From Escherichia phage vB_EcoP_LNA5: a stretch of 39,091 bases of DNA. The position numbers and the translations under genes were made by a program. Positions within the stretch are counted from its first letter, which is position 1, and the number at the start of each line of letters is the position of its first letter. Positions 7,557 to 39,091 of this stretch are shown here, piece by piece. The stretch is from sequence record MZ311861.1; one strand, 5' to 3'. The notes under the pieces are model-generated. The model worked only from the letters and a program-made list of their open reading frames with translations. It searched no databases and was not told the DNA's origin.

Positions 7557-8008
7557 CACTTAACTCCTTTCTTCTTGGGGATGAGTATACCTGAAGGCAG
7601 ACGTACAGTCGCCTCTCGAAGCCACTCAACCGGGATGAATTTATCGGCATACTTATAGCCGTTCTTTTCGCACCATGCGCCATACGTGGTTGGAGACCCT
7701 TTGTATAACTTGGAGCGTGAACTTGAGAACACGAACCGGATGTCTAACTCTGGGTGCTGTTCTCGTACCAGAAGGTGCTTCTTACGGTCATCACTATCGA
7801 AGATACCTTTGGTCTCCACGATGATACCGTTAGGAAGAATAAAATCTGGTGTGTACTTGTGGTCGGAAGCCGGAATCACATAGTTGATATAATGGCTTTC
7901 GTACTCCGCTTTGACGCCGTTCTGTTCCAGCCACTGCTGGTTCTTGGCTTCAAGTCCAGAGCGGTAGGCACCCACAGAGTGCCCCCGTTTTGCAGACCAT
8001 TTGGCCAT
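7556..8008 (-). CDS. endonuclease I (Holliday junction resolvase) gp3
   Basis: Recalled similarity to T7 gp3 (..YVIPAS.H.YTPDF.LPNGI.VETKG..DSDDRKKHLL.REQHPELDIR.VFSSS..KLYKGSPT.YG). Confidence 0.95.
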   Translation of the reverse strand: MAKWSAKRGHSVGAYRSGLEAKNQQWLEQNGVKAEYESHYINYVIPASDHKYTPDFILPNGIIVETKGIFDSDDRKKHLLVREQHPELDIRFVFSSSRSKLYKGSPTTYGAWCEKNGYKYADKFIPVEWLREATVRLPSGILIPKKKGVK

Positions 8009-8709
8009 TAGAAGTCGTAATCGCCACCAGAGTTGGAGTCGTCACCACCTTCGTAACCATCGTCAGACCCAAAGTCATCACCACCGAAGTCACCAACGGT
8101 TGACGCTTTGTAACCAGTACCAAGGTCTTCATCATCACCCCAGCCACCATCGCCACCAGCACCATCACCTTTCCATTCCTTCAGTTCTACCAGAAGGCAG
8201 GACTCAAGCTGGAGCTTAACGCTTGCACCAGTCGCAGCGTTCCACTTGAACGGCAGGACTTTAAACTTGACCTTCAGCTTAGACCCAGCGCAGATATTCG
8301 GGACGTCACGGATGAGTTTAGCATCGGTGTCGTAGAACCGTAATACGATAGGCTCGGACTTGCCGTCTTTCAGGTAAGACGCAAAGCATTTAAACTTAAG
8401 GGTAACAGTACCGTCACCATTCTCAATCCACGGCATGTCGCCTTCTCGTGGTTCAATAGGCTTCTTGCCACGCTGAACCTGAGGTGGGTTCTTCTCGTGG
8501 TCTGCGAGTGCTTTTGCATACGCATCGTCGTGAATCTTCTGTAAGACATCAATCATCTTACGGACCTTATGGTTGCTCAGGTCGAATGTCAGGTTAACCT
8601 TATGCTCACCACGCTCGTTAAACTTGGTGTCTGCTTTGTTCAGCCATGCGTAAGGCTCAACGATACCAGCTACCGGAGTGGTGAAAGTCTTCAGTTGCTC
8701 TTTAGCCAT
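8008..8709 (-). CDS. single-stranded DNA-binding protein gp2.5
   Basis: Recalled similarity to T7 gp2.5 (..GKKP..P.EGDMP...NGDGT.T.KFKC.AS.., ..GSKLKVK..., ..GASVKLQLES..LVEL..) with acidic C-terminal tail ending in F. Confidence 0.95.
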   Translation of the reverse strand: MAKEQLKTFTTPVAGIVEPYAWLNKADTKFNERGEHKVNLTFDLSNHKVRKMIDVLQKIHDDAYAKALADHEKNPPQVQRGKKPIEPREGDMPWIENGDGTVTLKFKCFASYLKDGKSEPIVLRFYDTDAKLIRDVPNICAGSKLKVKFKVLPFKWNAATGASVKLQLESCLLVELKEWKGDGAGGDGGWGDDEDLGTGYKASTVGDFGGDDFGSDDGYEGGDDSNSGGDYDF

Positions 8710-8753
8710 CGGTGTAAATCTCCTAATTTAAAAGTTACTAACTGGACGTCTGT

Positions 8754-8771
8754 CCTACAGTGATAGTTTAG
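8754..8771 (-). promoter_or_regulatory. phage RNAP promoter variant (phi2.5 position; CACTGTAGG core)
   Basis: cctacagtgatagtttag: single substitution at -3; directly upstream of the SSB gene. Confidence 0.7.
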
Positions 8772-8926
8772 GTCTCAGGGCGAATCCGTCCGACCACAAA
8801 CCCAGCGTCCTCATACTCTTGGGACTTCAGGGTAGCCTCTTCAAGAGACTTTGCGTACAACGGAACCTCGAAGGACTGGGTACGTCCCTCAAGTTCCACG
8901 ATGTATTTCTTCTCTACGTCAGTCAT
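8768..8926 (-). CDS. gp2-like host RNA polymerase inhibitor (52 aa)
   Basis: Hand-translated ORF below the 60-aa track cutoff: [43 protein letters not shown], compare recalled T7 gp2 ..SFEVPIYAETLDEA..AGFEVTRVRP; AAGGAG 8 nt upstream. Confidence 0.7.
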
Positions 8927-9004
8927 AGACCACGCTCCTTCCATAAGTTGTAGAGCTGAAGGTAATCGACGTTACCTGTCTCCTCAAATTTACGCTCGCA
9001 CCAC

Positions 9005-9478
9005 TCACTCGGAAGCATAGCACTTACCTTTATGTAGGTCGAACAGCTCCTGATAGAAGGCTGCTTTGTTCAGGTCCTTCTCCATAGTAGCCAGCTCGGA
9101 CTTCTTACCAGCCCGGAGTCGATACTTCAGGACGTTACCCATGCAGAACCCACGGAACTCGCTGACAGTCATGGACCGAGCGATAATCTCAATGGACTCC
9201 ACTCCGTCAAATACCTGATAGTGGGACGGCTTGCGGACAGCGTCGATTGACTCAGTGGAAGGTTGGTCATCTGTAGGAGTTACCTCTGGTTTCTCCAGTT
9301 TAGGCTTACGTATGTCCATCGCTCGGATTTCACCTAAGGTTATCTTTTCATTGATATTTACAGGGCAGAGGAAGCAAGGGACAGTATGGCAGAAAATACT
9401 GCAGCCATTCAAATCATCTGGGCGACCTTCGTTATTATCTACCAACTTAATGATAACCTCTTGTTCAAGTGCGTTCAT
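9005..9478 (-). CDS. gp1.7-like nucleotide kinase
   Basis: Recalled similarity to T7 gp1.7 (..IIKL.DNNEGRPDDLNGC..KITLGEIRAMD.RKP.L.KPEVTPTDDQPS.., ..ARSMTV..F.G.C.GN.LKYRLRAGKKSELA..EKDL.KA.FY.ELF..HK.KCYA); shorter at the N-terminus than recalled T7 protein; AAGGAG upstream. Confidence 0.8.
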   Translation of the reverse strand: MNALEQEVIIKLVDNNEGRPDDLNGCSIFCHTVPCFLCPVNINEKITLGEIRAMDIRKPKLEKPEVTPTDDQPSTESIDAVRKPSHYQVFDGVESIEIIARSMTVSEFRGFCMGNVLKYRLRAGKKSELATMEKDLNKAAFYQELFDLHKGKCYASE

Positions 9479-9548
9479 ATTGTTAACTCCTTTATTACAG
9501 GTGTGTGTGGATAACGGTCATCCTTCTCTAAGCAAGCTATACATCCCA

Positions 9549-9803
9549 TCAGAACACCTCCTTCACGAACTCAACGAACAGACGAAAGCGAGGCCACTTA
9601 GTGTAGACCACAGGCACACTTGTCTCCTGCTTCTGTCGAGCCTCTTCAGCTTTGCCAGGAGTAATCAGAGCGAAGACTGTAGGTGACAGCTTAACGGCCT
9701 TCCCGAAGTATCCCATCTTCTCGTTGCGCTTAATGCAAGCTAATGGGTTGTGAGACAGGTGGAATGTACTGGTATAACGATTGAACATTAAGTTCTTAAA
9801 CAT
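9549..9803 (-). CDS. hypothetical protein (gene 1.6 position)
   Basis: 84-aa ORF, AAGGAGG 7 nt upstream of ATG, immediately downstream of a phage promoter; assigned by position only. Confidence 0.55.
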   Translation of the reverse strand: MFKNLMFNRYTSTFHLSHNPLACIKRNEKMGYFGKAVKLSPTVFALITPGKAEEARQKQETSVPVVYTKWPRFRLFVEFVKEVF

Positions 9804-9833
9804 GTCGGCCTCCTTAGGTCGAGTTATGGTTGT

Positions 9834-9851
9834 CCTATAGTGATAGCTTAG
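9834..9851 (-). promoter_or_regulatory. phage RNAP promoter (phi1.5/1.6 position)
   Basis: cctatagtgatagcttag, one mismatch to the window consensus. Confidence 0.8.
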
Positions 9852-9887
9852 GGTCTAACTGGTGGCCCAGACGATAGCTTGCTAGCA

Positions 9888-9924
9888 CAAAGCAAAGAAA
9901 CCCAGCAGTCCGAAGACCACTGGG
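9888..9924 (-). terminator. intrinsic terminator after the ligase gene (T7 TE position)
   Basis: Minus strand CCCAGTGGTC-TTCG-GACTGCTGGG (10-bp stem with two G.U pairs, UUCG loop) followed by TTTCTTTGCTTTG; sits 12 bp past the ligase stop. Confidence 0.7.
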
Positions 9925-9935
9925 TTGACGTTTAG

Positions 9936-15497: not shown

Positions 15498-15629
15498 AGT
15501 TAACTCCTATCAATGTAAGTGGTAATCTTTGAGGCCACCTATCAGTCGATGACCTCTCGTCTATCACTCAGTACCATCACGTCAGTGTTATGGTCAAGCT
15601 ATGATTTGGTTCTCTCCTGTTTATTTAGG

Positions 15630-15857
15630 TTACTCGCCGTCTCCTTCTGTAAGGCTATCGTCTATTAATTCAAATTTACCGTTTGAGTGTTGGATAGCCT
15701 CTTGTCCGCAATGGTCGCAAACCACCAGTTTATCGAACCCGTCAAACTCGTCACCTGCTACGCAAGAAAGTACGAATTTATGATTGGTGCATACTTCTTG
15801 CGTTTCACCGAAAATTGCTCGAAAACCTTTGGTTATGGCACCAGTGATTGTGTTCAT
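15630..15857 (-). CDS. Cys-rich small protein (75 aa), possible zinc ribbon
   Basis: GAGGG upstream of ATG; paired Cys motifs (C..C, then CDHC) and an acidic C-terminus; sits downstream of an RNase III-like hairpin. Confidence 0.55.
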   Translation of the reverse strand: MNTITGAITKGFRAIFGETQEVCTNHKFVLSCVAGDEFDGFDKLVVCDHCGQEAIQHSNGKFELIDDSLTEGDGE

Positions 15858-15871
15858 ATCTTCCCTCTCAG

Positions 15872-15928
15872 TTGTTAATGACTATCAGTCAGGCCACCAG
15901 CATTGATGACCTGTAGTCTGTCACTTAG
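15872..15928 (-). promoter_or_regulatory. RNase III-like processing hairpin, class B
   Basis: Shares the gttaGtgactatcagtcaggcc...cctgtagt motif with 16602..16660 and 16919..16983; forms a long imperfect hairpin, as recalled for T7 R1. Confidence 0.5.
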
Positions 15929-16070
15929 CGTGTAAACTGTCGTGTATACGCTTGCGTCTCCTGTAGACCACTTTCAAGAGACGCATAGCCCAATCGTGGT
16001 CTAACTGCCCGGTCTTGACCATAAGCCGGGCGTTAGTGACGTGGTGCTGGCAGAGGCCATAAGTTACCAT
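15921..16070 (-). CDS. gp0.4-like small protein (49 aa)
   Basis: ATG overlaps the Ocr stop (TGATG), as 0.4 does with 0.3 in T7; MVTYGLCQHHVTNARLMVKTGQLDHDWAMRLLKVVYRRRKRIHDSLHAK shares the YGL..W..AM..L pattern with recalled T7 gp0.4. Confidence 0.45.
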   Translation of the reverse strand: MVTYGLCQHHVTNARLMVKTGQLDHDWAMRLLKVVYRRRKRIHDSLHAK

Positions 16071-16573
16071 CACTCGCAGTCCTCAGCCGCAGGGTCGAAC
16101 ACTACGTTATCATTGATGTCTTCCACCTTCAGGTGGCGACCTGCCGCATAGTTAACATTGGCACATGCAGTAGCGACCTCAAGAGCTACAGCTTGCACAA
16201 TTATTGCGCCTGTTTTAGCGTCAACTACCCAATATTCATCCTCTTCGTCTGCCTCTTCATCCTCAAACCAGACTACATCCAAGCTATTAGACACGTCGTT
16301 ATAAAGTGCCTCATAGATGCGAGCTTGTAGGATACGCGTTACGTCCTTGGTTTCAGGTATCATCCCAGAGTCTTCGAACTCGTTGTCTATACCATCAGCA
16401 GCCATCACCGTAAAAATCTCGTGGTAATAGTGTGGAACCTGACCGTCTACGACCTCATGCAGCGCAGCGCTGTAGTCGTCATCTTGAGTCAGGTGGTCGT
16501 ACTGAATACGCTCGATAAATGCCTCAACGGTTGCAGCCAGCAACTCATAGTATGCGTTAGCATTACGTTCCAT
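16070..16573 (-). CDS. ocr: Ocr-like DNA-mimic anti-restriction protein (gene 0.3) with about 50-aa C-terminal extension
   Basis: Residues 1-115 match recalled T7 Ocr (..VPHYY..IF.VMA..GID.EFEDSG..P.TKDV.RILQARIYE..); the ORF then continues past the acidic tail (..DEEADEEDEY) for about 50 more residues; GAGG upstream of ATG. Confidence 0.85.
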   Translation of the reverse strand: MERNANAYYELLAATVEAFIERIQYDHLTQDDDYSAALHEVVDGQVPHYYHEIFTVMAADGIDNEFEDSGMIPETKDVTRILQARIYEALYNDVSNSLDVVWFEDEEADEEDEYWVVDAKTGAIIVQAVALEVATACANVNYAAGRHLKVEDINDNVVFDPAAEDCE

Positions 16574-16601
16574 AGTTATATCCTCTCAAAGTTAATTATG
16601 T

Positions 16602-16660
16602 GTTAGTGACTATCAGTCAGGCCGCTATCAGTCTAACGACCTGTAGTTAATCACTCTCAG
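16602..16660 (-). promoter_or_regulatory. RNase III-like processing hairpin, class B
   Basis: gttagtgactatcagtcaggcc..cctgtagttaatcac: 7-bp outer stem plus CAGG/CCUG inner stem with internal loop; lies between the first early ORF and ocr. Confidence 0.5.
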
Positions 16661-16902
16661 TTAGTGAAATAAGGAGCTGAGACGCCCACTGTAGGACTCA
16701 CGGTTATCTGCGAGTCTATCAGGTATGTCTCGTTGTCTATACGCACAGTATCGACGCTGTAGTTGCTGAACTGCTTGCTTGATACCTTGCGCACTACCAC
16801 ACGGTGACGCGCTCCTGTCATCTCTTTAAGCTGAATCCACGCATAACCTTTAGTGTTCACGAATACTTCATTGCGATTAGTGATTGTGCTTAAGTGTTTC
16901 AT
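16657..16902 (-). CDS. first early gene: hypothetical protein (81 aa)
   Basis: ATG at 16902 with AAGGA 9 nt upstream (track ATG at 16911 has no spacing); first ORF downstream of the host-type promoter and RNase III-like hairpin; no motif recognised. Confidence 0.5.
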   Translation of the reverse strand: MKHLSTITNRNEVFVNTKGYAWIQLKEMTGARHRVVVRKVSSKQFSNYSVDTVRIDNETYLIDSQITVSPTVGVSAPYFTN

Positions 16903-16918
16903 AGTGTCCATCCTTTAA

Positions 16919-16983
16919 GTTAGTGACTATCAGTCAGGGCCTTTGAGTCTACATCTGAAGGCCCTGTAGTTAGTCGCTATCGG
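16919..16983 (-). promoter_or_regulatory. RNase III-like processing hairpin, class B (R0.3 position)
   Basis: agtgactatcagtcagggcc-(18-nt loop)-ggccctgtagttagtcgct, a long imperfect inverted repeat. Confidence 0.5.
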
Positions 16984-17088
16984 CGCACATTAAGAGTTTA
17001 TCCAGATTGTTAAAGAGCATTCCCTTCAGTCAGAGGACTTCAGGTAGACCATTCAGTGTTGGTCATCACCGTTGTTTCGATGTGGTAC

Positions 17089-17118
17089 ATATTACTTTAA
17101 GTCGTTACTGCCTGTCAA
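17089..17118 (-). promoter_or_regulatory. host sigma70-type early promoter
   Basis: Minus strand TTGACA-GGCAGTAACGACTTAAAG-TAATAT (18-bp spacer); resembles the recalled T7 A3 promoter; first gene follows about 190 bp downstream. Confidence 0.6.
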
Positions 17119-17370
17119 CTACTTTCTGTCGGTTGCCTGTTGTTCGTATGTCTTACAGGCTGACTACTTAACCGGACCGGACCGGCGTCTTCACTATCCG
17201 GTTGTTGCCGTGTCGTGTTGACGGAAGCTATTAGGCCATAGTCTGGACCTATAGTCAATAGGTAATTTGAAATAATATTGATTAAGCTATCGTCGGCCCC
17301 ATGGTGTAAGAGGATATAGTCTTTGACTAACATGTCTTAGACCTTAAGTCTATAGCCTTGTGTCTATTAA

Positions 17371-17491
17371 CTGTAGGTCTATGACTGTAGGTGTTGGTGT
17401 CTTATGGTTGAGACTGTAGGTTAGTGAGACTGTAGGTTATGACTTATGGTTGTGAGAGGTAGGCTGTGACCTATGGTTGTGACTTATGGTT
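17371..17491. repeat. array of short direct repeats in the genome-terminal region
   Basis: Plus-strand (g)actgtaggt four times and (ga)cttatggtt four times; on the phage strand ACCTACAGT / AACCATAAG, resembling the recalled T7 CCTAAAG repeats near the terminal repetition. Confidence 0.6.
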
Positions 17492-17718
17492 ATACAGATA
17501 GAGACTCAAAGAAGACCCATAGTCCCAACCTATCGTCCTTCCCTAAGCCATAGCCTCAGCCTATCGTTGACCTTAAGTCTTGACCATCTGTCCAACCTTA
17601 TGATAGACTGGCACGGGTAGGGCCTTTGGTCTGGACTGAAAGAGGGCCTATGGGGAGACTTGAGGTTCTTGAAGTGTGAGATGTGGTCTCAAACTTTTGG
17701 TCCAAAACTCATCGTCAC

Positions 17719-17760
17719 TACTGTAGGCCACAGCCACTGTAGGTCAAGGACCGTAGGTCA
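17719..17760. repeat. second cluster of CTGTAGG-type short repeats
   Basis: actgtaggcc, actgtaggtc, ccgtaggtca within 42 bp. Confidence 0.5.
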
Positions 17761-17918
17761 GGCGACACTAGGATAGACCAATAAGTAGGATGACCCTAAG
17801 TGAGCTTCTATTAAGGTGTTACCTAAAGTCCTTGACTACAGTAGCTAAGGTCAGTAGAGTAGCGTCAGCTATGAACTGACCTTAGGTCTTGCTTTCGTTG
17901 ATTGTTACCATTACGGCG

Positions 17919-18077
17919 TTAATTACACTGAGAGACCAGAGAACATACGAGAGTCTCGACCCACCCGACCCACTGACTTCCAGCAGTAGCGCCAGCAGCA
18001 AGTAGAACAGCAGCAAGAAACCTGTATGTAGCTCGATTGGTCGCCAGAGCTTTAAGTACAGCTTTGGTCTTTGCCAT
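17919..18077 (-). CDS. gp19.5-like small protein (52 aa)
   Basis: AGGAGG about 10 nt upstream of ATG; downstream of the phi-OR-position promoter, as gene 19.5 is in T7; hydrophobic segment FLAAVLLAAGATAG. Confidence 0.4.
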   Translation of the reverse strand: MAKTKAVLKALATNRATYRFLAAVLLAAGATAGSQWVGWVETLVCSLVSQCN

Positions 18078-18260
18078 ATGCTACATACCTCCTGTATCTA
18101 TGGTCGGTGACTATCTGTATTGGAGGGATTATGATTAATATCACCCTCCTTCCATCGGTGCAAGCCTTAGGTAAGAACTCGAAGTCTTCCTCCTAAGGTC
18201 TTGCATAAAGTCTGCATATGTATATTCACTACAGTAATACTATAAGTAACCGGGGGTCTT

Positions 18261-18279
18261 CCCTATAGTGATAGTTAAG
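18261..18279 (-). promoter_or_regulatory. phage RNAP promoter (phi-OR position)
   Basis: ccctatagtgatagttaag, about 95 bp past the large terminase stop. Confidence 0.8.
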
Positions 18280-18374
18280 TCCAAACTCCTTGTAAAACAG
18301 TATGTTAGACTGGTAGTAACTATAGGTTACTAACTGCTTATTCATGCAGCTTTCACCTATAGTTATTCATTCAG

Positions 18375-20138
18375 CTAGTGGAACGTAACGTATGACCCTA
18401 GTCCCAGCTCGTCGTCCGTATCGTGAGTTACCCGGACCCCATTGTCCCAGAACTCAGTGTGGATGGACTCGAAGCCTTTCCGTGGGTTCTCCATCTGTTC
18501 CTCCAGCCACTCCTCAGTGACTTCACGTTCGCCTTTGTTGGCATCCTTAGCCATAGACTCAACGAAGAACTGTACACCGATAGCCAGCGCATCAAGTCGG
18601 TCATCGTGTGCCAAGGCTCCACGTTCGCGAGATATACGTGTCATCTGGTAGAAGAGAGAGTAGATAGGGTTACGAACACCATCCTTATCAGAGGCCGACT
18701 GGTAGTCTTGGACGATAGCAGCAGCGTTAACGATAAGTCGGTGAGACCCCATGATAGGCTCCAGAACGTCACAGATGCGGAGTTCCTTCTGACCCTTACT
18801 CTTCACTTCAGTTACAGCAGCAGGATGGATACGGGCCGCTACAGGCTTGAATAGCTCAAGGTACATACCATCGCCGAAGTTACCCTCAATGACGTATTCG
18901 TTGACCTTCCACTTACGACCAATCTTAGCCAGTGCTTCCATCGTTGAGTCCTCATACCCACCGCGCATACCACCAGCTTCCATCACGAAGATGTAGCCGT
19001 TGAGCTGGTACAGAACAGCGTAGCCAGTCTCATCCTTACCACGACCACTAGGGTCAATGACCAGAATCTTCTGAGTGTACGCGCTGAAGGCAGAGCCTAC
19101 AGTCTGATACGTATGGTAGGAATCACCCATGAGTCCAACGTTAGGAACGTCCTCACGCTTGTTCTGAGGGTTCGGCAACCATTGGTAGACCATTGGGCTT
19201 GACTCTGGGTCCAAGTCGGCTACGATAAGGTCACGGAGCTTAAGAGGGTACTTCTCGGCATCACTCAGGTTCGGGTTAAGCATGAACTGTAGAGCGAAGC
19301 CAGCTTTACCGTAGGACAGCTCACGTTCCTTCAGGTCCGTATCATCGAAGCGTACTTCATCAGTCGGACGCCAGTAGAAGGACTCAGGGTCCTCTTCCAG
19401 CTCTGCCTGAAGCATAGGAGCCAGACGGTCGCCGTAAGACTGCCAGTCCTTCCTGTCGCGTGGATAACGAGCGGGCCAGATAGTAGTGGTGTACCCACGA
19501 CCTTCCAGCTCACGGTACAGGGTCATCTCGTTCTGAGGAGTGCCCAGATAGATGATTGTACCTCCCGGCTTCAGGATAGCGTCGAACTCTTTTACAAGCT
19601 CTGACAGACGGTCTCTCGCAGCCTGAGTAGCAGAGTTGTTTGGAACCTCCACGTCATCGGCAATCAGGATGTCAGCACGACTACCAGTCAACTGACCAGT
19701 GATACCAACGGACTTAACCGAAGGTGAGTGGTCTGGCTTGGCTGGACCAACGTCGAAGCTGATAACCGCATCTCGCTGTCCCTGCTTAGGTTTGAGTTCC
19801 TGAAGCTGAGGCATGAGGTCGATGATTCGCTTGATGAATATGGAGTTAGCATCGGCTCGTTCCTTTGAGGCCGACACAATCATGAACTTCAAGTCTGGGT
19901 TGTTCCATAGTTTCCAGACCACGAAACCACAGGTCAGAAACGACTTGCCAATACCACGGAACGCCTGAAGGATGAAGCGGCGATTATCCCCAGCAGCCAG
20001 CTTCTTACACATATCTATCTGGCAGCGGGTTGGAACCGGAAGGCTAAGAGCTTTCCAGAGAACGAAGATGAAGAACACGAAGTCTTCCTTCATACGTGCA
20101 GTCATTAGCGCCTGACGCGCCACTAAGTCTTTACTCAA
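18375..20138 (-). CDS. terminase large subunit gp19
   Basis: Recalled collinear similarity to T7 gp19 (..[39 protein letters not shown].., ..[26 protein letters not shown].., ..[31 protein letters not shown]..). Start codon is TTG (AGGAGGT 6 nt upstream), overlapping the 18.5 stop. Confidence 0.97.
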
Positions 20139-21284: not shown

Positions 21285-23465
21285 TTATGATAACGACATC
21301 CTTGAATTGGCGAAAGATAAAGCCTGAGCTTGCGTCGTAAACTCAGCGATGAAAAAGTCACTGAATCTGACCGTAGCTCCCGAACCTCCTCCTGTGGAAA
21401 CGTATAGCGCTACAGTGCCAGTGGTAGATGCCTTTCCTACACCGAAAGTGCTAATCCACTCCCCCTGCTTTGTGTAAACACTACCCATGGTAATACCTGA
21501 CGTTATACTAATATCCGCCGAGCCAGATTGTAGGCGTGAGTTAACTCCCCACACGTACCATCTACCGGATGTAATGGTTGTTCTTGTCGATACCATTTCA
21601 TATAAACCGGCTCCGGGGAATGAAAATTCTGTACATGTAGCGGCATGAAGTCCGTCAGATACAGTCGAACCGTTAACGGTGCCGCTGCCAGAAAAATTAT
21701 AGCTACCTGAGTCAAATGTGATAGCCATTAATTTATTCCCTGTCGGCGTATTAAATACTCTCCCTCTTGTTAAGTTGCCCCTCAGAGATAAGTTTGTGGT
21801 AGCTATCGTTGCAGATTGCGATGCGACGGACTCCACAATAACGTCCTTTCCAGAACTGCCGTTTAAATACACGTCATGGGCTACAATGGTGCTTTGTGCA
21901 TCCACGACAATATCCTGATTGCCATCAGCGTTGTCAAAACGGCAACCATAAGTTACTAAGTTGGAGTTGGATAGCTCGATGTTGTTGAGATAAGAATACT
22001 CAGCAAAGAATATCGCTGTGTCTACCAACTTGAGAACTCGCGGTTTTTGCGCCACGCCGTCTACCTGAACAGCCGGTGATGTTGCGATCGCTTCCATCCA
22101 TATATTGGATACCCCGCATGGAGATGTAGGACAGTCGCCCGATTTACTTTTTAAGTATATCCCGCCACCTCCGGAAGCCTCAATAATGGAGTCTTTAAGC
22201 CACCATGCGCCCCCCCCGCCATTATCGACAGTGCCGTCCAGATAGACTGCATAGGTGGAGATGCCATCGAAGTGGATATTGTAGAGGGTATCGGCCCCGC
22301 AATGCATCTCTGAGCCACTAATCGCGTAATACCCCCAATCACACGTAGATATCCCAATATTTCTCCAAGTATTGCCGATGTTCCCGGAAGGCTTCTGAAT
22401 GGCCTTGTTGATGTTGTGGATGTATACATCACTAAAATTATGACGTCCGGAATATTGGTCTGACGGGTCAAAACTAATACCTACGGCCCCGGTTGTCCCG
22501 GAACCATCTATAGCAAAACCACCACTATGGCGGAATTGCCAATGAGGTGTAGCTAAATTAACCTGAACAGTGTTTGTAAAGTCTGCCGGAGTTTTTAGTA
22601 CCGTGGCCCCGCCAACACCTTTTAACTGCGCGTTTCCAATAGTAACTTTTTCAGTATAATTGCCAGGAGACACCAGTAGATCATTTTTTTGCAAAGATGC
22701 ATCTATAGCTGCCTGCAGTGTTGGAAAGTCTTTTGAGTGCAAAACATCATTGTTGTGCTCAAGTAATGTCCTTTCTCCACTGCCTATGTATTTAGCGCCA
22801 TCGCTATCAGACAGGTTTGCTCTAAGTGACGCATCACCAACACTAACCCACGCACTCATCCCAATACCACCAGATGATTCAGGAGTTGAACCAGCGGGAA
22901 CGTTCTTTGGAAGCATACCATCCCAGCGGTAATAATCACCATCCTCTTCCCATAGCAGGACCTCGTTCCATGTTGTAACGTTGAAGCCTTTCTCGAAGGA
23001 GCTACGGGTAATATAGCCAATTTTACCAGCTGCCTTGATACTCGCAGCGATTCGGCGTGCTTCGTCCTCGCTATCCTTAGCGTTGCCAGCAGAGCTACCA
23101 GCAGCATCGGCATATTCCTTCGCTAAGTCAACCGTTTGGTCTCGACCTTCTTCTGCAATATGGATAGCCTGAAGCTCTGAATTGGTAAGGTCACTAGCTG
23201 TCAACACTGAGCCATTCCTGAAGTCTACCACTAAGTCAGTTCCAGTCTGACGGTGAATACGAACGATGTCGAAACCTGATTGGTCAGCCAACATCTCAAT
23301 CATCGTTGGATTAAGGAATCGGTAATCTCGACCAACTTCCAGTACACGGTTCAGGGTAGGGTTAGAGCTATTCACCAGCGTAACAACAACAAACGTTCTG
23401 GCTAGGTAGTCGAACTCTATCCTGTACTGAGTGTTTCCTGAAGGGAATTGTGTAATCGTGGACAT
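21285..23465 (-). CDS. tail fibre / tailspike gp17: T7-like N-terminal adaptor plus divergent beta-helix-like C-terminal domain
   Basis: N-terminal about 150 aa recalled as T7 gp17-like (..FEYLAR.FVVVTL.., ..DGS.L.A.DLN..Q..H.AEE.RD); remainder is Gly/Ser/Thr/Asn-rich with repetitive strands, typical of right-handed beta-helix tailspikes; AAGGAGG upstream; more AT-rich than flanking genes by eye. Confidence 0.85.
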   Translation of the reverse strand: MSTITQFPSGNTQYRIEFDYLARTFVVVTLVNSSNPTLNRVLEVGRDYRFLNPTMIEMLADQSGFDIVRIHRQTGTDLVVDFRNGSVLTASDLTNSELQAIHIAEEGRDQTVDLAKEYADAAGSSAGNAKDSEDEARRIAASIKAAGKIGYITRSSFEKGFNVTTWNEVLLWEEDGDYYRWDGMLPKNVPAGSTPESSGGIGMSAWVSVGDASLRANLSDSDGAKYIGSGERTLLEHNNDVLHSKDFPTLQAAIDASLQKNDLLVSPGNYTEKVTIGNAQLKGVGGATVLKTPADFTNTVQVNLATPHWQFRHSGGFAIDGSGTTGAVGISFDPSDQYSGRHNFSDVYIHNINKAIQKPSGNIGNTWRNIGISTCDWGYYAISGSEMHCGADTLYNIHFDGISTYAVYLDGTVDNGGGGAWWLKDSIIEASGGGGIYLKSKSGDCPTSPCGVSNIWMEAIATSPAVQVDGVAQKPRVLKLVDTAIFFAEYSYLNNIELSNSNLVTYGCRFDNADGNQDIVVDAQSTIVAHDVYLNGSSGKDVIVESVASQSATIATTNLSLRGNLTRGRVFNTPTGNKLMAITFDSGSYNFSGSGTVNGSTVSDGLHAATCTEFSFPGAGLYEMVSTRTTITSGRWYVWGVNSRLQSGSADISITSGITMGSVYTKQGEWISTFGVGKASTTGTVALYVSTGGGSGATVRFSDFFIAEFTTQAQALSFANSRMSLS

Positions 23466-23515: not shown

Positions 23516-23533
23516 CCTATAGTGATAGTTTAG
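23516..23533 (-). promoter_or_regulatory. phage RNAP promoter (phi17 position)
   Basis: cctatagtgatagtttag, overlapping the gp16 stop and about 50 bp upstream of the gene 17 ATG. Confidence 0.85.
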
Positions 23534-26500
23534 TCCTTGATGTGGATGCCCTGCTCCTCAAACGTTCCAAGCAGCAACTTCTGGGTAATCGGGTCATTCG
23601 GTACAAGTTCACGGAACGTGTTATACATCCCGGTCATGTAGTCTCGCTCGTTGACACGGGTATCAGCCTTGAGGTATCCCGCCAAGTTGTAAGCCGTCGC
23701 ACCAACGTTAGCAGCATAGCCGAAAGCCGGGACCTGCTCAAGGAAGTTGCCGACAACATTCATTACCGGACCACTGGAAGCAGCACCAAAGGCGATTGGC
23801 TTCTCCGTCTTCTCGGTAGGTGATCGCGGAAGGATTGACGAGCGGAGCATCTTAGTGTCCTCATATCCAGCGATGCCTCCCAGAATGTTGGCGACCCCAA
23901 GAGGACCACCTAAGTGGGAGCTACGGGACAGCGCCGCATAGCCAATCATTGTTGGGTTAAGGGCTTGCTTCAGATACTCTCGGTCACGACCGTCCTGCAT
24001 AGCGTAAGCCTTTATGTGCGCCTGAGCCATGTAGTACATTCCAGCCAGACCCATAGACATAACCGTTGATAGCGCAGCGTCCATAGCTCGGTTGTTCTTG
24101 GTGGCATTGTAGAAGGTACGCATGGTTCGACCGTTGATAGACTTGATAACGAAGTTCTTAAACTGCAAGACAGTCTTCGCTATCGGACCATAAGCCTTGG
24201 CGTCCATGTTGCTCAGCTTGTGGGGGCGGAGCAGGGTCTCATCAGCGATGGTGTCACCCATACGCCAGAGGTCCATAGCCCTTGGGTCCTGACTGAACGC
24301 CTTCTTATCCTTGATGGTGTACTTCCCGTCTGGACCACGAGTCACTGACTCACGGATTAGGGACTTAATGCCCTTCCACTGCTCGTCAGAGATACCAGCG
24401 GTCTTCAGCCAGCGGTCATCGAACTTACGCTTACTACCAGTCAGGCTATGCTCCACGATGTCAGACAGGAAGCCCTGACGTCCAGCATCTAACAGGTAGT
24501 TGGTCGTACCGTTGAGGACTTTAGTGAACGGAGAGCGTACTGCAAGTTCGCCAGTGTAATACTTGGCAGTCCCCAGAGCTGTAGCTGTACCACGACCGAG
24601 GTCACTGTAAGATCGCAGACGGTCAATGACATCCTGTTTAGACGGACGGATTGAGTCATCCAGTTCCTTACCGAAGATAACATTGTGCAGGTCCTTAATC
24701 TCTGAGGCCCCAACCTTCTTGTTACGGAAGGCTAGGTCACGGAAAATTGGGACTCCATGAAGCATTGCACGAACGTTACCACGAGCCAGCATACCACCAA
24801 TCTCCGTTAAGTTCTGAACACCCATGTAGGCATTCTTAGCGAAGAACGATAGGTCTGTCATTGTGCGCATCACGGTAGCGAAGGCCGCATCATCAGCACC
24901 ATCACGTCGAGCACGACCAGTTAGAATCTTCAAAGTGTCACGTAAGGTAGATACTTCACCTTTCAACTTACCGTCATCCCCAGCCTTGTTCATCAGGGTC
25001 TCAACCAAGTCCTTCATGTCCTTCGTGGTCTTGCCTGTACCAGCCATGATAGCAATATCGCCATTAACTCGACGGTTGTAGGCCGGGACAATCTTGTCCA
25101 TGTCCCACTCACGCAGGTTGTTGACACTGAAGGTCTGACCGTTAGGTAGGACGATTGACATATCGCTATCGAACAGGTTACGAGCCTCAAGGAAGCTGTT
25201 GTTCTCCAGACCCACCAGACCATTGATGTTCTCTTCCATTACGGATGAACGCTCGAACTGCTCGGTGTGAGAGATACCATAAGCCTTATCGTTGGCGTAC
25301 TTATCAACCGCAGCCGCAAGTCCTTCTGGAGTCAACGTAGGGTCAGCCTCTAAGAGTGCCTCGTCCACACGTTTCTTGACTTCAGGTCGAGACGCATAGC
25401 TGGTCAACCATGACTTCTTGATGGCCTCCTGTAGTGCCTCTGGACTCCCAAGCTCCTTGATGTACAGCTCCTTCATCTGGTTGCTATACACATGCGGGAC
25501 GTATGTTCCCTTGAAGCGGCTACCCGGAAAGATAGACTGAGCGTCTGGGCGACCAAACATCGCCGGGTTCTCCATCATCTCACGCTTGGCGTCAAACTGG
25601 TTCTTCAGCAGGTCATAGACTTTCAGTTCTCCCGGAGTCAATTCAGCCTTCAGGTTTCCGCTACCATCTTCGATAGCCATAGACACGCGCTGATAGATGT
25701 CTTGACGGAATGCGCCAGAGTCTCGCCAGAATGCTGTCTGGAAGTACGGGTCCTTTAGTGCCTCAGTAACCGCATCGTCGATGTCATTGTAGAACCGATG
25801 GTCCACAGCACGAAGTCTCTCGAATACGTCTGACGCAGTTGTCCCTATTTTACCTGAGGCCCCAGACTGCATACCAGTCGGTGAACGTACTAAGTCAGCA
25901 GCTACTCCACGAATCTCAGGGTTCTCGGACCGAAGCAGCTTCAGGCCAATCTCAGTCAGCCCACCAAGGTTCACACCAGCAGCGGCACGTTCAGGCTCAA
26001 TCACTTCGTCAAAGACTTTACGTGTCTTAGGGTTCAGAGGATTCTCACCAATCAGGATTGAACCATCTTCCAGTCGTACACTACCCGGCTCGTTCGGAAC
26101 GTCTGCGAACTTAACACCTTGATGACTAAAGGTCTCCTCTCCTTCACGGATTGGCATACGCGACAGGTCCTGACCATCAACATTACGTGCAGTCTCACGG
26201 GCTTCCAGACGTGTGGCTGGTCCGGCGAACTCGTTGGTTGACTTGCCTAAGGCCTTGCCGATAGCGTCCCCGATAGCTGTCATTCCCCCACCGAAGAGAG
26301 CACCGCCCATAATTGCCTCAGCCACATGAGCGTCCCCACCAGCAACTGAGGTTCGAGCAATCTCGGATGCCCCAGCCATAGCACCAGACTGAGCAGCCAC
26401 AGTGAACATCTTGTTGACTAGCTTCCCACCTTTACCTACCTGCCCAGCAATAGGAACGTAGGTCAGAGGGTCCACGCCAGCACCAATCACACCAGCCGCC

Positions 26501-27417
26501 AGTTGAGCACCAGTCCCGGCCTTGGCCTTCTCTTGGTCCAACTTCTGGTTCTCAAGCGCCAAGTTAATCAGCTCAGTCAGGTTCTGAGGGGAACCACCAG
26601 TGATGACTCCGTAATACTGAGGCAGAACCCCAGCGTTACGAATCTGGTCCAGCTCCTCACGAGACCACTTATGGTTATTCCATCGGGTTGGGTTGAACAC
26701 ATCGCCAATGACATCCAGTGAGTCCTCAGTCTGACCAGCTCTGATAGCCACGCCGACCATAGAGTTCTTCACTTCAGCTTCTGTAGCCGCACCGAAACCG
26801 AACCACGTAGAGCGATCCTCTCGTTCCTGCATGGTCTCGCCAGTAGCCTTATAGAACATCTCACCGAACGATTCGTTGGGAGCTTCAGGTGCTTGACCCT
26901 CAATGTTTAGACCAGCAGCGGTCGGAAGGTTCTCACCCAGAGCTACTTTAGGTTTAGCCTTGAGTCCTTCCGTGAGTGCGTCAAATACGTTAGCGCTTAC
27001 TGGTGGAGTCTTTGGGCTAATGCCATTGAGTGCTCGTGCGACTCCCTTCTGATAGACTTCAGGGTCGTACCGTGAGCCTGTCTCATGGTAGCCGATAGCC
27101 TCAGACAGAGAGGCGAGGACATCAGGGTTCGTCAGGTCGATACTTTGTGTTGCCGGGATGCCCGTAGCCGAAGCCACTGACTGAATGTACGCCTGAGTGT
27201 CGTTCTCGTTAGGCGGTGCCCAGCGGGTGATAATCTTCTCGATAGAGTCATAACCTTGGCGACCATAGCTTTGAAGGTTTTTAGCTAAGGCTCGGACCCC
27301 AGATTCAGGACTATCGAAGATAACGAACGCACCATCATCACCTATAGCACCTTCCCATTGGTCTTTGGACTTACGGAGGTTCCCGGGGTTTGAGTTCCTT
27401 ACTCCACGTGTTGCCAT
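23530..27417 (-). CDS. internal virion protein D gp16 with non-T7 N-terminal domain
   Basis: 1295 aa; from about residue 200 onward collinear with recalled T7 gp16 (..TWFGF..A.EAE..NS.., ..GVDPL.YVP..G.., ..RLEARETARN.., ..DLVRSPTGMQSGASGK.., ..AMDLWR.., C-terminal ..NDP.TQ.L.L..); N-terminal about 130 aa (MATRGVRNSNPGNLRKSKDQWEGA..WAPPNENDT..) differ from the recalled T7 transglycosylase domain; GAGGAG upstream. Confidence 0.93.
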   Translation of the reverse strand: MATRGVRNSNPGNLRKSKDQWEGAIGDDGAFVIFDSPESGVRALAKNLQSYGRQGYDSIEKIITRWAPPNENDTQAYIQSVASATGIPATQSIDLTNPDVLASLSEAIGYHETGSRYDPEVYQKGVARALNGISPKTPPVSANVFDALTEGLKAKPKVALGENLPTAAGLNIEGQAPEAPNESFGEMFYKATGETMQEREDRSTWFGFGAATEAEVKNSMVGVAIRAGQTEDSLDVIGDVFNPTRWNNHKWSREELDQIRNAGVLPQYYGVITGGSPQNLTELINLALENQKLDQEKAKAGTGAQLAAGVIGAGVDPLTYVPIAGQVGKGGKLVNKMFTVAAQSGAMAGASEIARTSVAGGDAHVAEAIMGGALFGGGMTAIGDAIGKALGKSTNEFAGPATRLEARETARNVDGQDLSRMPIREGEETFSHQGVKFADVPNEPGSVRLEDGSILIGENPLNPKTRKVFDEVIEPERAAAGVNLGGLTEIGLKLLRSENPEIRGVAADLVRSPTGMQSGASGKIGTTASDVFERLRAVDHRFYNDIDDAVTEALKDPYFQTAFWRDSGAFRQDIYQRVSMAIEDGSGNLKAELTPGELKVYDLLKNQFDAKREMMENPAMFGRPDAQSIFPGSRFKGTYVPHVYSNQMKELYIKELGSPEALQEAIKKSWLTSYASRPEVKKRVDEALLEADPTLTPEGLAAAVDKYANDKAYGISHTEQFERSSVMEENINGLVGLENNSFLEARNLFDSDMSIVLPNGQTFSVNNLREWDMDKIVPAYNRRVNGDIAIMAGTGKTTKDMKDLVETLMNKAGDDGKLKGEVSTLRDTLKILTGRARRDGADDAAFATVMRTMTDLSFFAKNAYMGVQNLTEIGGMLARGNVRAMLHGVPIFRDLAFRNKKVGASEIKDLHNVIFGKELDDSIRPSKQDVIDRLRSYSDLGRGTATALGTAKYYTGELAVRSPFTKVLNGTTNYLLDAGRQGFLSDIVEHSLTGSKRKFDDRWLKTAGISDEQWKGIKSLIRESVTRGPDGKYTIKDKKAFSQDPRAMDLWRMGDTIADETLLRPHKLSNMDAKAYGPIAKTVLQFKNFVIKSINGRTMRTFYNATKNNRAMDAALSTVMSMGLAGMYYMAQAHIKAYAMQDGRDREYLKQALNPTMIGYAALSRSSHLGGPLGVANILGGIAGYEDTKMLRSSILPRSPTEKTEKPIAFGAASSGPVMNVVGNFLEQVPAFGYAANVGATAYNLAGYLKADTRVNERDYMTGMYNTFRELVPNDPITQKLLLGTFEEQGIHIKD

Positions 27418-39014: not shown

Positions 39015-39091
39015 CAAGACCGGGAGTCGGTCGGTGCCAAGATGTGGTAGCCAGCATGTAGAGATACGCTACTGGTTGACCTGAGACATCG

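Follow-up and report, generated by a model that had tools for sequence, protein, structure and literature searches.

The tail fibre of phage T7, gp17, binds the tail through its N-terminal domain; a coiled-coil shaft follows, and then the pyramid and tip domains, as reportedly described by Garcia-Doval and van Raaij (2012; cited in PMC7885116). The fibre is not known to have enzymatic activity. The tailspikes P22 gp9, Sf6, HK620, Det7 and CBA120 TSP1-4 have a modular N-terminal adaptor, a right-handed parallel beta-helix with conserved carboxylates on adjoining rungs, and a C-terminal beta-sandwich, and those of P22, Sf6 and HK620 are O-antigen endoglycosidases. Within Kayfunavirus, LM33_P1 (Kayfunavirus LM33P1) is a published therapeutic candidate against ST131-O25b:H4 and is described as targeting ST131-O25b. 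Infection by LM33_P1 is reportedly LPS-dependent (Dufour et al. 2016), and the papers citing that study do not reproduce its analysis of the LM33_P1 tail fibre or LPS. Outside the genus, the fibre of Kuravirus ES17 (QPL11059.1, 1021 aa) is the sole relative of the protein studied here with published biochemistry (PMC7885116).

The window analyzed here is the whole 39,091-nt stretch of Escherichia phage vB_EcoP_LNA5 (MZ311861.1), and in it the gene 17 position is flanked by the genes for the gp16 internal core protein and the holin, as in LM33_P1. The product, a spike of the LM33_P1 type, serves host recognition in a K1F/T7-like podophage of E. coli (Kayfunavirus). To judge from the alignments, this tailspike is already known, being near-identical to the spike of LM33_P1 (SBT28132.1 / YP_009324518.1): 716 of 726 residues are the same, and the genes are 99.2% identical in nucleotides (99.2-99.4% when vB_EcoP-101118UKE1 is considered along with the LM33_P1 'Phage tail fibers' gene). 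The two share length, module order and neighbourhood (gp16 upstream; holin, gp18, Rz and gp19 downstream) and differ, with the LNA5 residue first, by A136S, S155R, M184T, M203L, S219A, T556A, Y589H, S626A, Q667P and S717A; the 5.2-kb stretch around the gene is approximately 96% identical, which is below the gene itself. The profile phrog_27367, the LM33_P1-type O25b receptor module, is matched over the full length (1329 bits, aa 1-726 on profile positions 1-736). At the level of the whole genome, vB_EcoP-22664BS1 has the closest backbone.

Positions 21285-23030, to which the sequence-only reading was attached, make up the C-terminal 581 codons of a single ORF (Table 1). Two plus-strand ORFs within the gene (66 and 90 aa) were discarded as mechanical by-products of the conserved coding region. 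Sigma-70 promoter-like sites do not exceed their frequency in shuffled sequence, and the excess of terminator-like sites (5 against 2.1 ± 1.5) is not a clear one.

Table 1. Features of the tailspike gene and its junctions, in window positions.
Feature	Residues	Positions	Strand	Basis or remark
Whole tail-fibre/tailspike gene, gene 17 position	726 codons + stop	21285..23465	-	ORF list
T7 gp17-type N-terminal tail-attachment module	1-145	23031..23465	-	Pfam match aa 10-115 = 23121-23438
Tail_spike_N (TSP1/Gp66-type) small beta domain	152-211	22833..23012	-	PF18668
Flexible linker holding the 5' crossover	211-230	22776-22835	-	pLDDT <50 at model residues 66-85
5' crossover zone	214-222	22800..22826	-	Three-way nucleotide alignment; breakpoints of other records
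Capping helices and predicted right-handed parallel beta-helix	234-256 and ~257-585	21711..22766	-	Boundaries approximate
Most conserved beta-helix core; candidate active site	340-460	22086..22448	-	Family conservation
C-terminal beta-jelly-roll (CBM-like) with short terminal helix	586-726	21288..21710	-	
3' junction zone of the exchanged cassette, non-coding, directly after the stop codon		21234..21284	-	phiEc4/IMEP24 breakpoints

A conserved adaptor and a predicted beta-helix

The protein consists of four modules: a T7 gp17-type domain, a Tail_spike_N domain, a beta-helix and a CBM-like jelly-roll. The first scores 59.9 bits against PF03906 (Phage_T7_tail) in the Pfam search, above the curated cut-off of 25.2 bits, and in a PDB sequence search the T7 gp17 chains 7boz, 8dsp and 8e4g match aa 6-116 with E values of about 1e-16 to 1e-17. 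As the sequence-only reading had claimed, the resemblance to T7 gp17 is limited to the N-terminus: the tail-binding domains are homologous and the genes occupy the same position, but past aa 116 the LNA5 spike has no similarity to T7 and is predicted to form a beta-helix. All PDB sequence matches are confined to aa 1-233, and the solved 'Tail spike protein' 9vvr_A is near-identical to residues 1-225. The second module scores 71.4 bits against PF18668 (curated cut-off 25 bits), matches the N-terminal domains of CBA120 TSP1/3/4 (5w6h, 4oj5, 6nw9) and has beta strands at residues 7-63 of the AlphaFold2 model. It is kept at 93-97% nucleotide identity in approximately 160 Kayfunavirus records and belongs with the genus-conserved adaptor, not with the receptor module. 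The boundary near aa 150 that had been proposed earlier is therefore a genuine domain boundary, but it is not the mosaic junction, which lies at the crossover zone of Table 1.

For aa 226-726, searches of Pfam (E up to 10), NCBIfam and the PDB (sequence and profile) returned no recognized family or structure apart from a sub-threshold pectinesterase match (E 0.11), so the fold had to come from structure prediction; neither a sialidase beta-propeller nor a Peptidase_S74 chaperone was matched in Pfam at E up to 1. The AlphaFold2 monomer model (pLDDT 87.9) predicts a right-handed parallel beta-helix for the central domain, with Foldseek E values of 1e-15 to 1e-6 against the CBA120, Sf6, Det7 and K2-2 tailspikes and of about 1e-5 to 4e-4 against those of HK620 and P22. 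The LNA5 spike shares with P22 gp9, Sf6, HK620, Det7 and CBA120 TSP1-4 the order of modular adaptor, beta-helix and C-terminal beta-sandwich, at a sequence identity of just 9-17%. In the model of aa 146-726, long helices are absent and the chain folds as beta-helix plus jelly-roll, which agrees with the proposed tailspike-like domain and not with a T7-like shaft and tip. However, the beta-helix does not extend through the whole remainder as had been supposed, because the C-terminal 141 aa form the jelly-roll. The spike is presumed to be homotrimeric, by analogy, since both its solved relatives and the T7-type adaptor are trimeric.

The compositional bias that had first drawn attention to this region is real: Gly, Ser, Thr and Asn make up 38.8% of aa 226-726 and 36.2% of the whole protein, more than in any other of the 25 ORFs that reach 100 aa, whose length-weighted mean is 25.0% (sd 4.2). 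The repeats that had been read into it are not, at least at the level of sequence, where Tandem Repeats Finder returned just a 19-nt chance match in the gene; the periodicity is structural and resides in the rungs of the beta-helix.

Sharp junctions and spread of the cassette

The 5' breakpoint was located by a three-way nucleotide alignment. Homology to the Kayfunavirus IMEP24 ends at gene nt 639, and homology to the Kagunavirus phiEc4 starts at nt 664. Among other records, further Kayfunavirus genomes cease to match at nt 633-646, and siphophage records begin to match at nt 664-677. The approximately 160 Kayfunavirus records share only nt 1 to ~640 with the gene, at 93-97% identity, and then diverge. 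K1F, IMEP24, the K5-lyase alleles and phages of Salmonella Typhi and Enterobacter all have the same adaptor (nt 1 to ~635-646, 93-97%) and the same junction. Behind it they carry different receptor modules. K1F has an endosialidase, and LNA5 homology to its sia gene stops at nt 635, whereas IMEP24 has a receptor module that is a member of the same beta-helix family as that of LNA5 but only ~39% identical to it in protein. The 3' breakpoint is equally well defined, with phiEc4 homology stopping at gene nt 2183, 2 nt beyond the stop codon, and IMEP24 homology resuming at nt 2232, 51 nt after it. The linker in which the 5' crossover falls is a recombination hotspot.

Between these breakpoints lies a cassette of ~1.5 kb which, to judge from its relatives, circulates among phages of unrelated types. 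These are siphophages (Kagunavirus), podophages (Kuravirus) and P22-like prophages, and each type supplies an adaptor of its own. The Kagunavirus tailspikes (vB_EcoS-Golestan, phiEc4, phiEc3, 22664BS2, fEg-Eco06) contain the same cassette from aa 222 to the stop, beta-helix and jelly-roll included, at 86-88% nucleotide and 89-92% amino acid identity. They differ in being 661 aa long, with an adaptor of their own that has a Tail_spike_N domain but lacks the T7 gp17 domain, and they belong to phages with a long non-contractile tail and an otherwise unrelated genome. In Kuravirus, the C-terminal 518 aa of the ES17 fibre are 64% identical to aa 218-725, while the 500-aa N-terminal part is unrelated. 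In an E. coli prophage, the same cassette is fused to a P22 Head_binding domain, at 82% protein identity. This prophage version was found in draft and read-archive assemblies alone (for example SRR14303836), and searches of 5,426 complete E. coli genomes and of the GTDB species-representative genomes did not return the receptor-module DNA. Phylogroup B2 strains such as SK1144 match the flank of the cassette-bearing prophage at 100% identity; the literature consulted gave no serotype for these strains, and a link from the prophage host to ST131 was dropped.

The AT-rich look of the downstream part of the gene had originally been called consistent with horizontal acquisition. The module is indeed modestly low in GC, at 0.464 where the genome as a whole has 0.500 (z = -1.9, and the 4.5th percentile when windows of equal length are compared), and its GC content stays at 0.466-0.472 whether the surrounding genome has 0.51, 0.52 or 0.42. 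The GC3 of the gene, 0.439, is the lowest of the 25 ORFs (mean 0.549, sd 0.044). However, the N-terminal 225 codons are likewise low (GC 0.481, GC3 0.440), and the GC minimum of the window is found outside the gene, at ~16-17.5 kb. The module is below the genome value, as expected by the sequence-only reading, but there is no step at the junction. Because the deviation is small and shared by the adaptor, we give GC little weight as evidence of transfer. The same observations could be taken to mean that the low GC and mosaic appearance reflect chance or selection in a gene that was inherited vertically and has not been exchanged recently. To this explanation we assign practically no credence: it would have to accommodate a 1.5-kb stretch at 88% nucleotide identity in siphophages that are otherwise unrelated, breakpoints that are sharp on both sides, and congeneric phages that are 92-97% identical at both flanks yet have no DNA-level similarity inside the cassette. 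The breakpoint alignments and the comparison of Kayfunavirus with siphophage records refute it, and they establish acquisition far more strongly than base composition does.

Ligand, candidate active site and competing explanations

Phages bearing the module were isolated on O25b strains, in keeping with the host-range role that had been proposed for it, and the cassette sets the host range. Specifically, O25b-positive strains served as isolation hosts for 22664BS1, 101118UKE1, 101136BS1 and the siphophage 22664BS2, whose plaquing host ranges are nearly alike at 41-44% (PMC8614997, the supplement of which lists no per-strain host ranges). The siphophage 22664BS2 has both the same O25b isolation host and the same host-range percentage. 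The allele most likely recognizes the O25b O-antigen of ST131-type E. coli. The host data alone do not separate O-antigen from capsule, since the isolation hosts may also bear a capsule, K5 or another.

The candidate active site is the most conserved part of the beta-helix, which holds R341, K358, the motif GNIGN (361-365), H388, D392, E429, W456 and E458. Across 134 family representatives with a median identity of 29%, E458 is conserved in 100%, W456 in 92%, E429, H388 and R341 each in 90%, K358 in 88% and D392 in 77-84%; D522 is conserved in 81%. The O25B repeat unit is built from Glc, GlcNAc, Rha and Rha2OAc and lacks uronic acid (PMC9516715), which excludes lyase chemistry for an O25b substrate. 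With Glu429 and Glu458 conserved family-wide on a beta-helix, the receptor module is thus probably an O-antigen endoglycosidase, and a catalytic role for residues of the core is suggested by this conservation pattern. A literature search found no cleavage assay for the module.

Taken together, we consider it about 75% probable that the gene encodes the single receptor-binding tailspike of a Kayfunavirus, in which a genus-wide adaptor is joined to an exchangeable beta-helix and jelly-roll cassette that recognizes O25b and probably cleaves it by hydrolysis. The T7 gp17-type domain would dock the spike on the tail, as part of an adaptor formed by the first ~213 residues and including Tail_spike_N; the linker would then lead into the cassette. 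The beta-helix would bind the O25b O-antigen, which would be hydrolyzed in a groove lined by Glu429, Glu458, His388 and Asp392, and this cleavage would let the virion advance down to the outer membrane.

Two other accounts of the module must be set against O25b hydrolysis. It could target a capsule or heparosan-like glycan (K5 of ST131, with mammalian heparan sulfate bound by mimicry), either binding it or degrading it in the manner of a K5 lyase. When ~860 glycans were arrayed, the purified ES17 fibre showed strong binding to those of the heparan-sulfate type; this fibre, 64% identical to the module over its C-terminal ~500 aa, was modelled on the K5 lyase 2X3H (PMC7885116). Some O25b isolation hosts also support a sister Kayfunavirus with a K5-lyase spike (PMC8614997). 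However, that array displayed mammalian glycans and O25b LPS was not among them (PMC7885116), and ligand specificity can differ at 64% identity. Moreover, 2x3h ranks just 33rd among generic beta-helix matches to the module, at 13% identity, so that the resemblance is one of fold and not of family, and with a separate K5-lyase allele present in the same genus and on the same host, a second, unrelated spike for K5 would be less parsimonious. Since the phages bearing the module also track the O25b serotype, we regard a capsular target as unlikely. A slightly less likely account still is that the beta-helix is a non-catalytic adhesin that binds O25b reversibly, its conserved residues serving binding or folding. 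No family member is known to have activity, and heparan-sulfate binding was the sole interaction that the ES17 authors could detect (PMC7885116). Against this, the invariant Glu458 together with Glu429, His388 and Asp392 resembles an active site, because residues that merely contact the ligand would be expected to vary by serotype. The top Foldseek phage tailspikes include the O-antigen endoglycosidases of P22, Sf6 and HK620 as well as PDB entries labelled depolymerases. In addition, a podophage with a short tail generally must clear long O-antigen to reach the membrane, as in P22-type infection.

With O25b hydrolysis as the preferred reading, the practical value of the analysis lies in annotation and host-range prediction: the spike is of the LM33_P1 type, and the host is therefore predicted to be E. 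coli O25b of the ST131 type, which is among the major multidrug-resistant lineages. For engineering, the crossover zone in the flexible linker marks a natural swap point among podophages, siphophages and P22-like prophages, and E429, E458, H388 and D392 form a shortlist of candidate residues for O-antigen hydrolase activity. The locus is a textbook example of tailspike modularity and leaves current understanding unchanged.

A further, rather improbable extension is that the module has a second ligand in mammalian heparan-sulfate proteoglycans, as for the ES17 fibre, or, in a related version, an uncharacterized specificity on the highly branched O25b repeat. A second ligand of this kind would position the phage on mucosal surfaces where ST131 resides, and one mobile cassette would then confer both host specificity and tissue localization across several phage morphotypes.

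Gene position and boundaries of the receptor cassette

The interval 21285..23030 covers the last four-fifths (3′ side) of one ORF on the minus strand, which the ORF list gives as 21285..23465 (726 codons). This ORF occupies the gene-17 position, matching the annotation of the Kayfunavirus LM33_P1, with the gp16 gene on one side and the holin, small-terminase, Rz and large-terminase genes on the other. The window is T7-like, and its nearest backbone is that of Kayfunavirus vB_EcoP-22664BS1 (∼96% identity). Its nucleotides 1–77 recur unchanged as 39015–39091, a circularisation overlap left by the assembler (k = 77), so that the contig represents the entire genome (39,014 unique bases) in reverse complement and circularly permuted; it carries no marking of the true T7-type terminal repeats.

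The whole gene is 99.0–99.4% identical in nucleotide sequence to eight records, including LM33_P1, and matches three others at 98.9%, 98.7% and 96.2%. In ∼160 other Kayfunavirus-type records, among them the K1F endosialidase gene and phages of Salmonella Typhi and of Enterobacter, only gene nt 1 to 633–646 are matched (93–97% identity; counted from the start codon). From gene nt 664–677 onward the sequence is 86–88% identical to tailspikes of Kagunavirus siphophages (Golestan, phiEc3, phiEc4, 22664BS2, fEg-Eco06); this identity ends 2 nt beyond the stop codon, and homology to Kayfunavirus IMEP24 picks up again 51 nt after it. By three-way alignment, the 5′ crossover falls at gene nt ∼640–665 (aa 214–222, window 22800–22826), exactly coincident with the low-confidence linker of the structural model. 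The sharp breakpoints, with Kagunavirus identity inside the cassette, bear out the proposal of horizontal acquisition made in the sequence-only reading, and rule out that the gene was inherited vertically without exchange.

Over its first 1000 nt (window 22466–23465) the gene is 100% identical to OR594184.1 (vB_EcoM_SHAK9454), whereas over its whole length it reaches only 96.2%, a pattern suggesting a further recombination point inside the receptor module. The annotation of OR594184.1 under the match is shifted, naming a terminase and a spanin.

Likeness to T7 gp17 is, as proposed, confined to the N-terminus: Pfam Phage_T7_tail covers aa 10–115 (59.9 bits, cut-off 25.2), and T7 gp17 chains align to aa 6–116 (E ∼1e-16 to 1e-17). 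The mosaic boundary, suggested at ∼aa 150, has to be moved to aa 214–222. A second Pfam domain, Tail_spike_N (PF18668), spans aa 152–211 (71.4 bits), making ∼aa 150 a domain boundary within the conserved adaptor. The PDB and the searchable literature appear to lack a solved structure of the receptor module, PDB sequence matches ending at aa 233. An AlphaFold2 model of aa 146–726, with 38 homologues as input, had a mean pLDDT of 87.9. It does not show a T7-like shaft and tip without a beta-helix, and the interpretation as a beta-helix receptor domain therefore stands. The tailspike architecture comprises four modules.

Features of the tailspike, its neighbour gene and a prophage copy of the module
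Feature	Position	Basis or remark
gp16 internal core protein gene	23530..27417	neighbour of the tailspike ORF
Small beta domain	aa 152–208	AlphaFold2 model
Low-confidence linker	aa 211–230	AlphaFold2 model, pLDDT below 50
Short capping helices	aa 234–256	AlphaFold2 model
Long regular run of short strands	∼aa 261–582	AlphaFold2 model
Compact all-beta C-terminal domain, helix at end	from ∼aa 590	AlphaFold2 model
Conserved residues	R341, K358, H388, D392	90%, 88%, 90%, 77–84% of 134 representatives
Conserved residues	E429, W456, E458	90%, 92%, 100% of 134 representatives
GNIGN motif	aa 361–365	134-representative alignment
Module copy (82% identical) behind P22 Head_binding domain	8001–9935	L005 (Logan SRR14303836 contig)

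Base and residue composition

The receptor part had been described as Gly/Ser/Thr/Asn repeats. The richness is real, at 38.8% in aa 226–726 and 36.2% in the whole tailspike, the highest among the 25 ORFs encoding 100 aa or more (length-weighted mean 25.0%, sd 4.2), but a search of the tailspike gene found no sequence repeats. The claim that the downstream part is more AT-rich fares similarly. The C-terminal module has a GC content of 0.464 against 0.500 for the genome (z = −1.9, 4.5th percentile), and the GC3 of the gene, 0.439, is the lowest of the 25 ORFs (mean 0.549), which favours it weakly. However, the conserved N-terminal 225 codons are low too (GC 0.481, GC3 0.440), so there is no GC step at the junction, and GC in the window is lowest at ∼15500–18400 (0.43–0.45, minimum at 16–17.5 kb). 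GC is thus weak evidence for acquisition, and sequence comparison decides the matter much more clearly. Among compositional arguments, a better one for mobility is that module GC stays at 0.466–0.472 across genome backgrounds of 0.51, 0.52 and 0.42. The region ∼15500–18400, more AT-rich than the tail-fibre gene singled out earlier, lies between the large terminase and RNA polymerase genes, holds small ORFs only, and presumably represents the genome ends and early region.

Host range, ligand and candidate active site

Near-identical modules are found in LM33_P1, 22664BS1, 101118UKE1 and 101136BS1. LM33_P1 reportedly targets the ST131-O25b:H4 complex, and its infection is said to depend on O25b LPS. 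The DSM isolation hosts of the other three are all O25b-positive by PCR, and the otherwise unrelated siphophage 22664BS2, whose module is 90% identical, shares its isolation host with 22664BS1 (PMC8614997). Of 79 strains, 41–44% are plaqued by these three Kayfunaviruses and 22664BS2, compared with 19% to 61% for sister Kayfunaviruses bearing other spikes (PMC8614997). The O25b hosts and the near-equal host range across unrelated backbones support the view that the receptor part sets host range, and the host data point to O25b as the target. Host DSM22664 gave three phages (PMC8614997 Table 1; MZ234009, MZ234011, MZ234010): a Kayfunavirus and a Kagunavirus that both have the present spike, and another Kayfunavirus whose spike is apparently a K5 lyase. 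Such a host offers a natural setting for cassette exchange of this kind.

That the ligand is instead capsule or heparosan we consider unlikely, even though the fibre of ES17, the only relative with biochemistry, showed heparan-sulfate binding in a glycan-array experiment and had K5 lyase as its modelling template (PMC7885116), and a Kayfunavirus with a K5-lyase spike came from the same host (PMC8614997). Glc, GlcNAc, Rha and 2-O-acetyl-Rha make up the branched pentasaccharide repeat of O25B, which has no uronic acid (PMC9516715); this absence rules out beta-eliminative lyase chemistry if O25b is the substrate. In an alignment of 134 family representatives (median identity 29%), conserved residues concentrate in aa 340–460, and E429 and E458 are spaced 29 residues apart, approximately one beta-helix rung. 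Carboxylate pairs are present in the P22, HK620 and Sf6 endoglycosidases, which the E429–E458 pair would resemble. The searchable literature appears to contain no demonstrated enzymatic activity of the receptor module; a purely adhesive, non-catalytic beta-helix nevertheless strikes us as quite improbable, and we infer a putative O-antigen endoglycosidase. The C-terminal jelly-roll of such an enzyme may serve trimer stability or a secondary glycan contact.

Distribution and previous descriptions of the module

Proteins of 644–646 aa carry the 500-aa module (62–83% identical) C-terminal to a P22 Head_binding domain; one of them is encoded in a P22-like prophage adjoining yfdC/mlaA/fadL of E. 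coli. This prophage, on contig L005, contains gp7, gp20 and gp16 homologues, an antirepressor and an integrase, and its flank is 100% identical to the phylogroup B2 E. coli strains SK1144, SA186 and 4/1-1. In the 1021-aa fibre of Kuravirus ES17 the module forms the C-terminus (64% identity). An exhaustive HMMER search returned 302 representatives of 50%-identity clusters at E ≤1e-3 and 75 at ≤1e-30; most matches span the whole module and their N-termini vary. Judged by these matches, the module represents a moderately large tailspike family.

Ten of the 726 residues distinguish the tailspike from LM33_P1 gp17, and its match to phrog_27367 is full-length; receptor-domain exchange behind conserved adaptors is textbook knowledge, and a 'pectinesterase-like' domain common to LM33_P1, Golestan, myPSH1131 and myPSH2311 was already described with ES17 (PMC7885116). 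The feature is therefore already known; the original observation is partly confirmed, and its interpretation is supported with the corrected junction. A 24.9-kb record labelled as a Microviridae mycobacteriophage (MZ417522.1, 'UNVERIFIED: Mycolicibacterium phage J1') encodes a fibre product 71% identical to the E. coli-type receptor module in a Kuravirus-like neighbourhood, and looks mis-assigned or contaminated.
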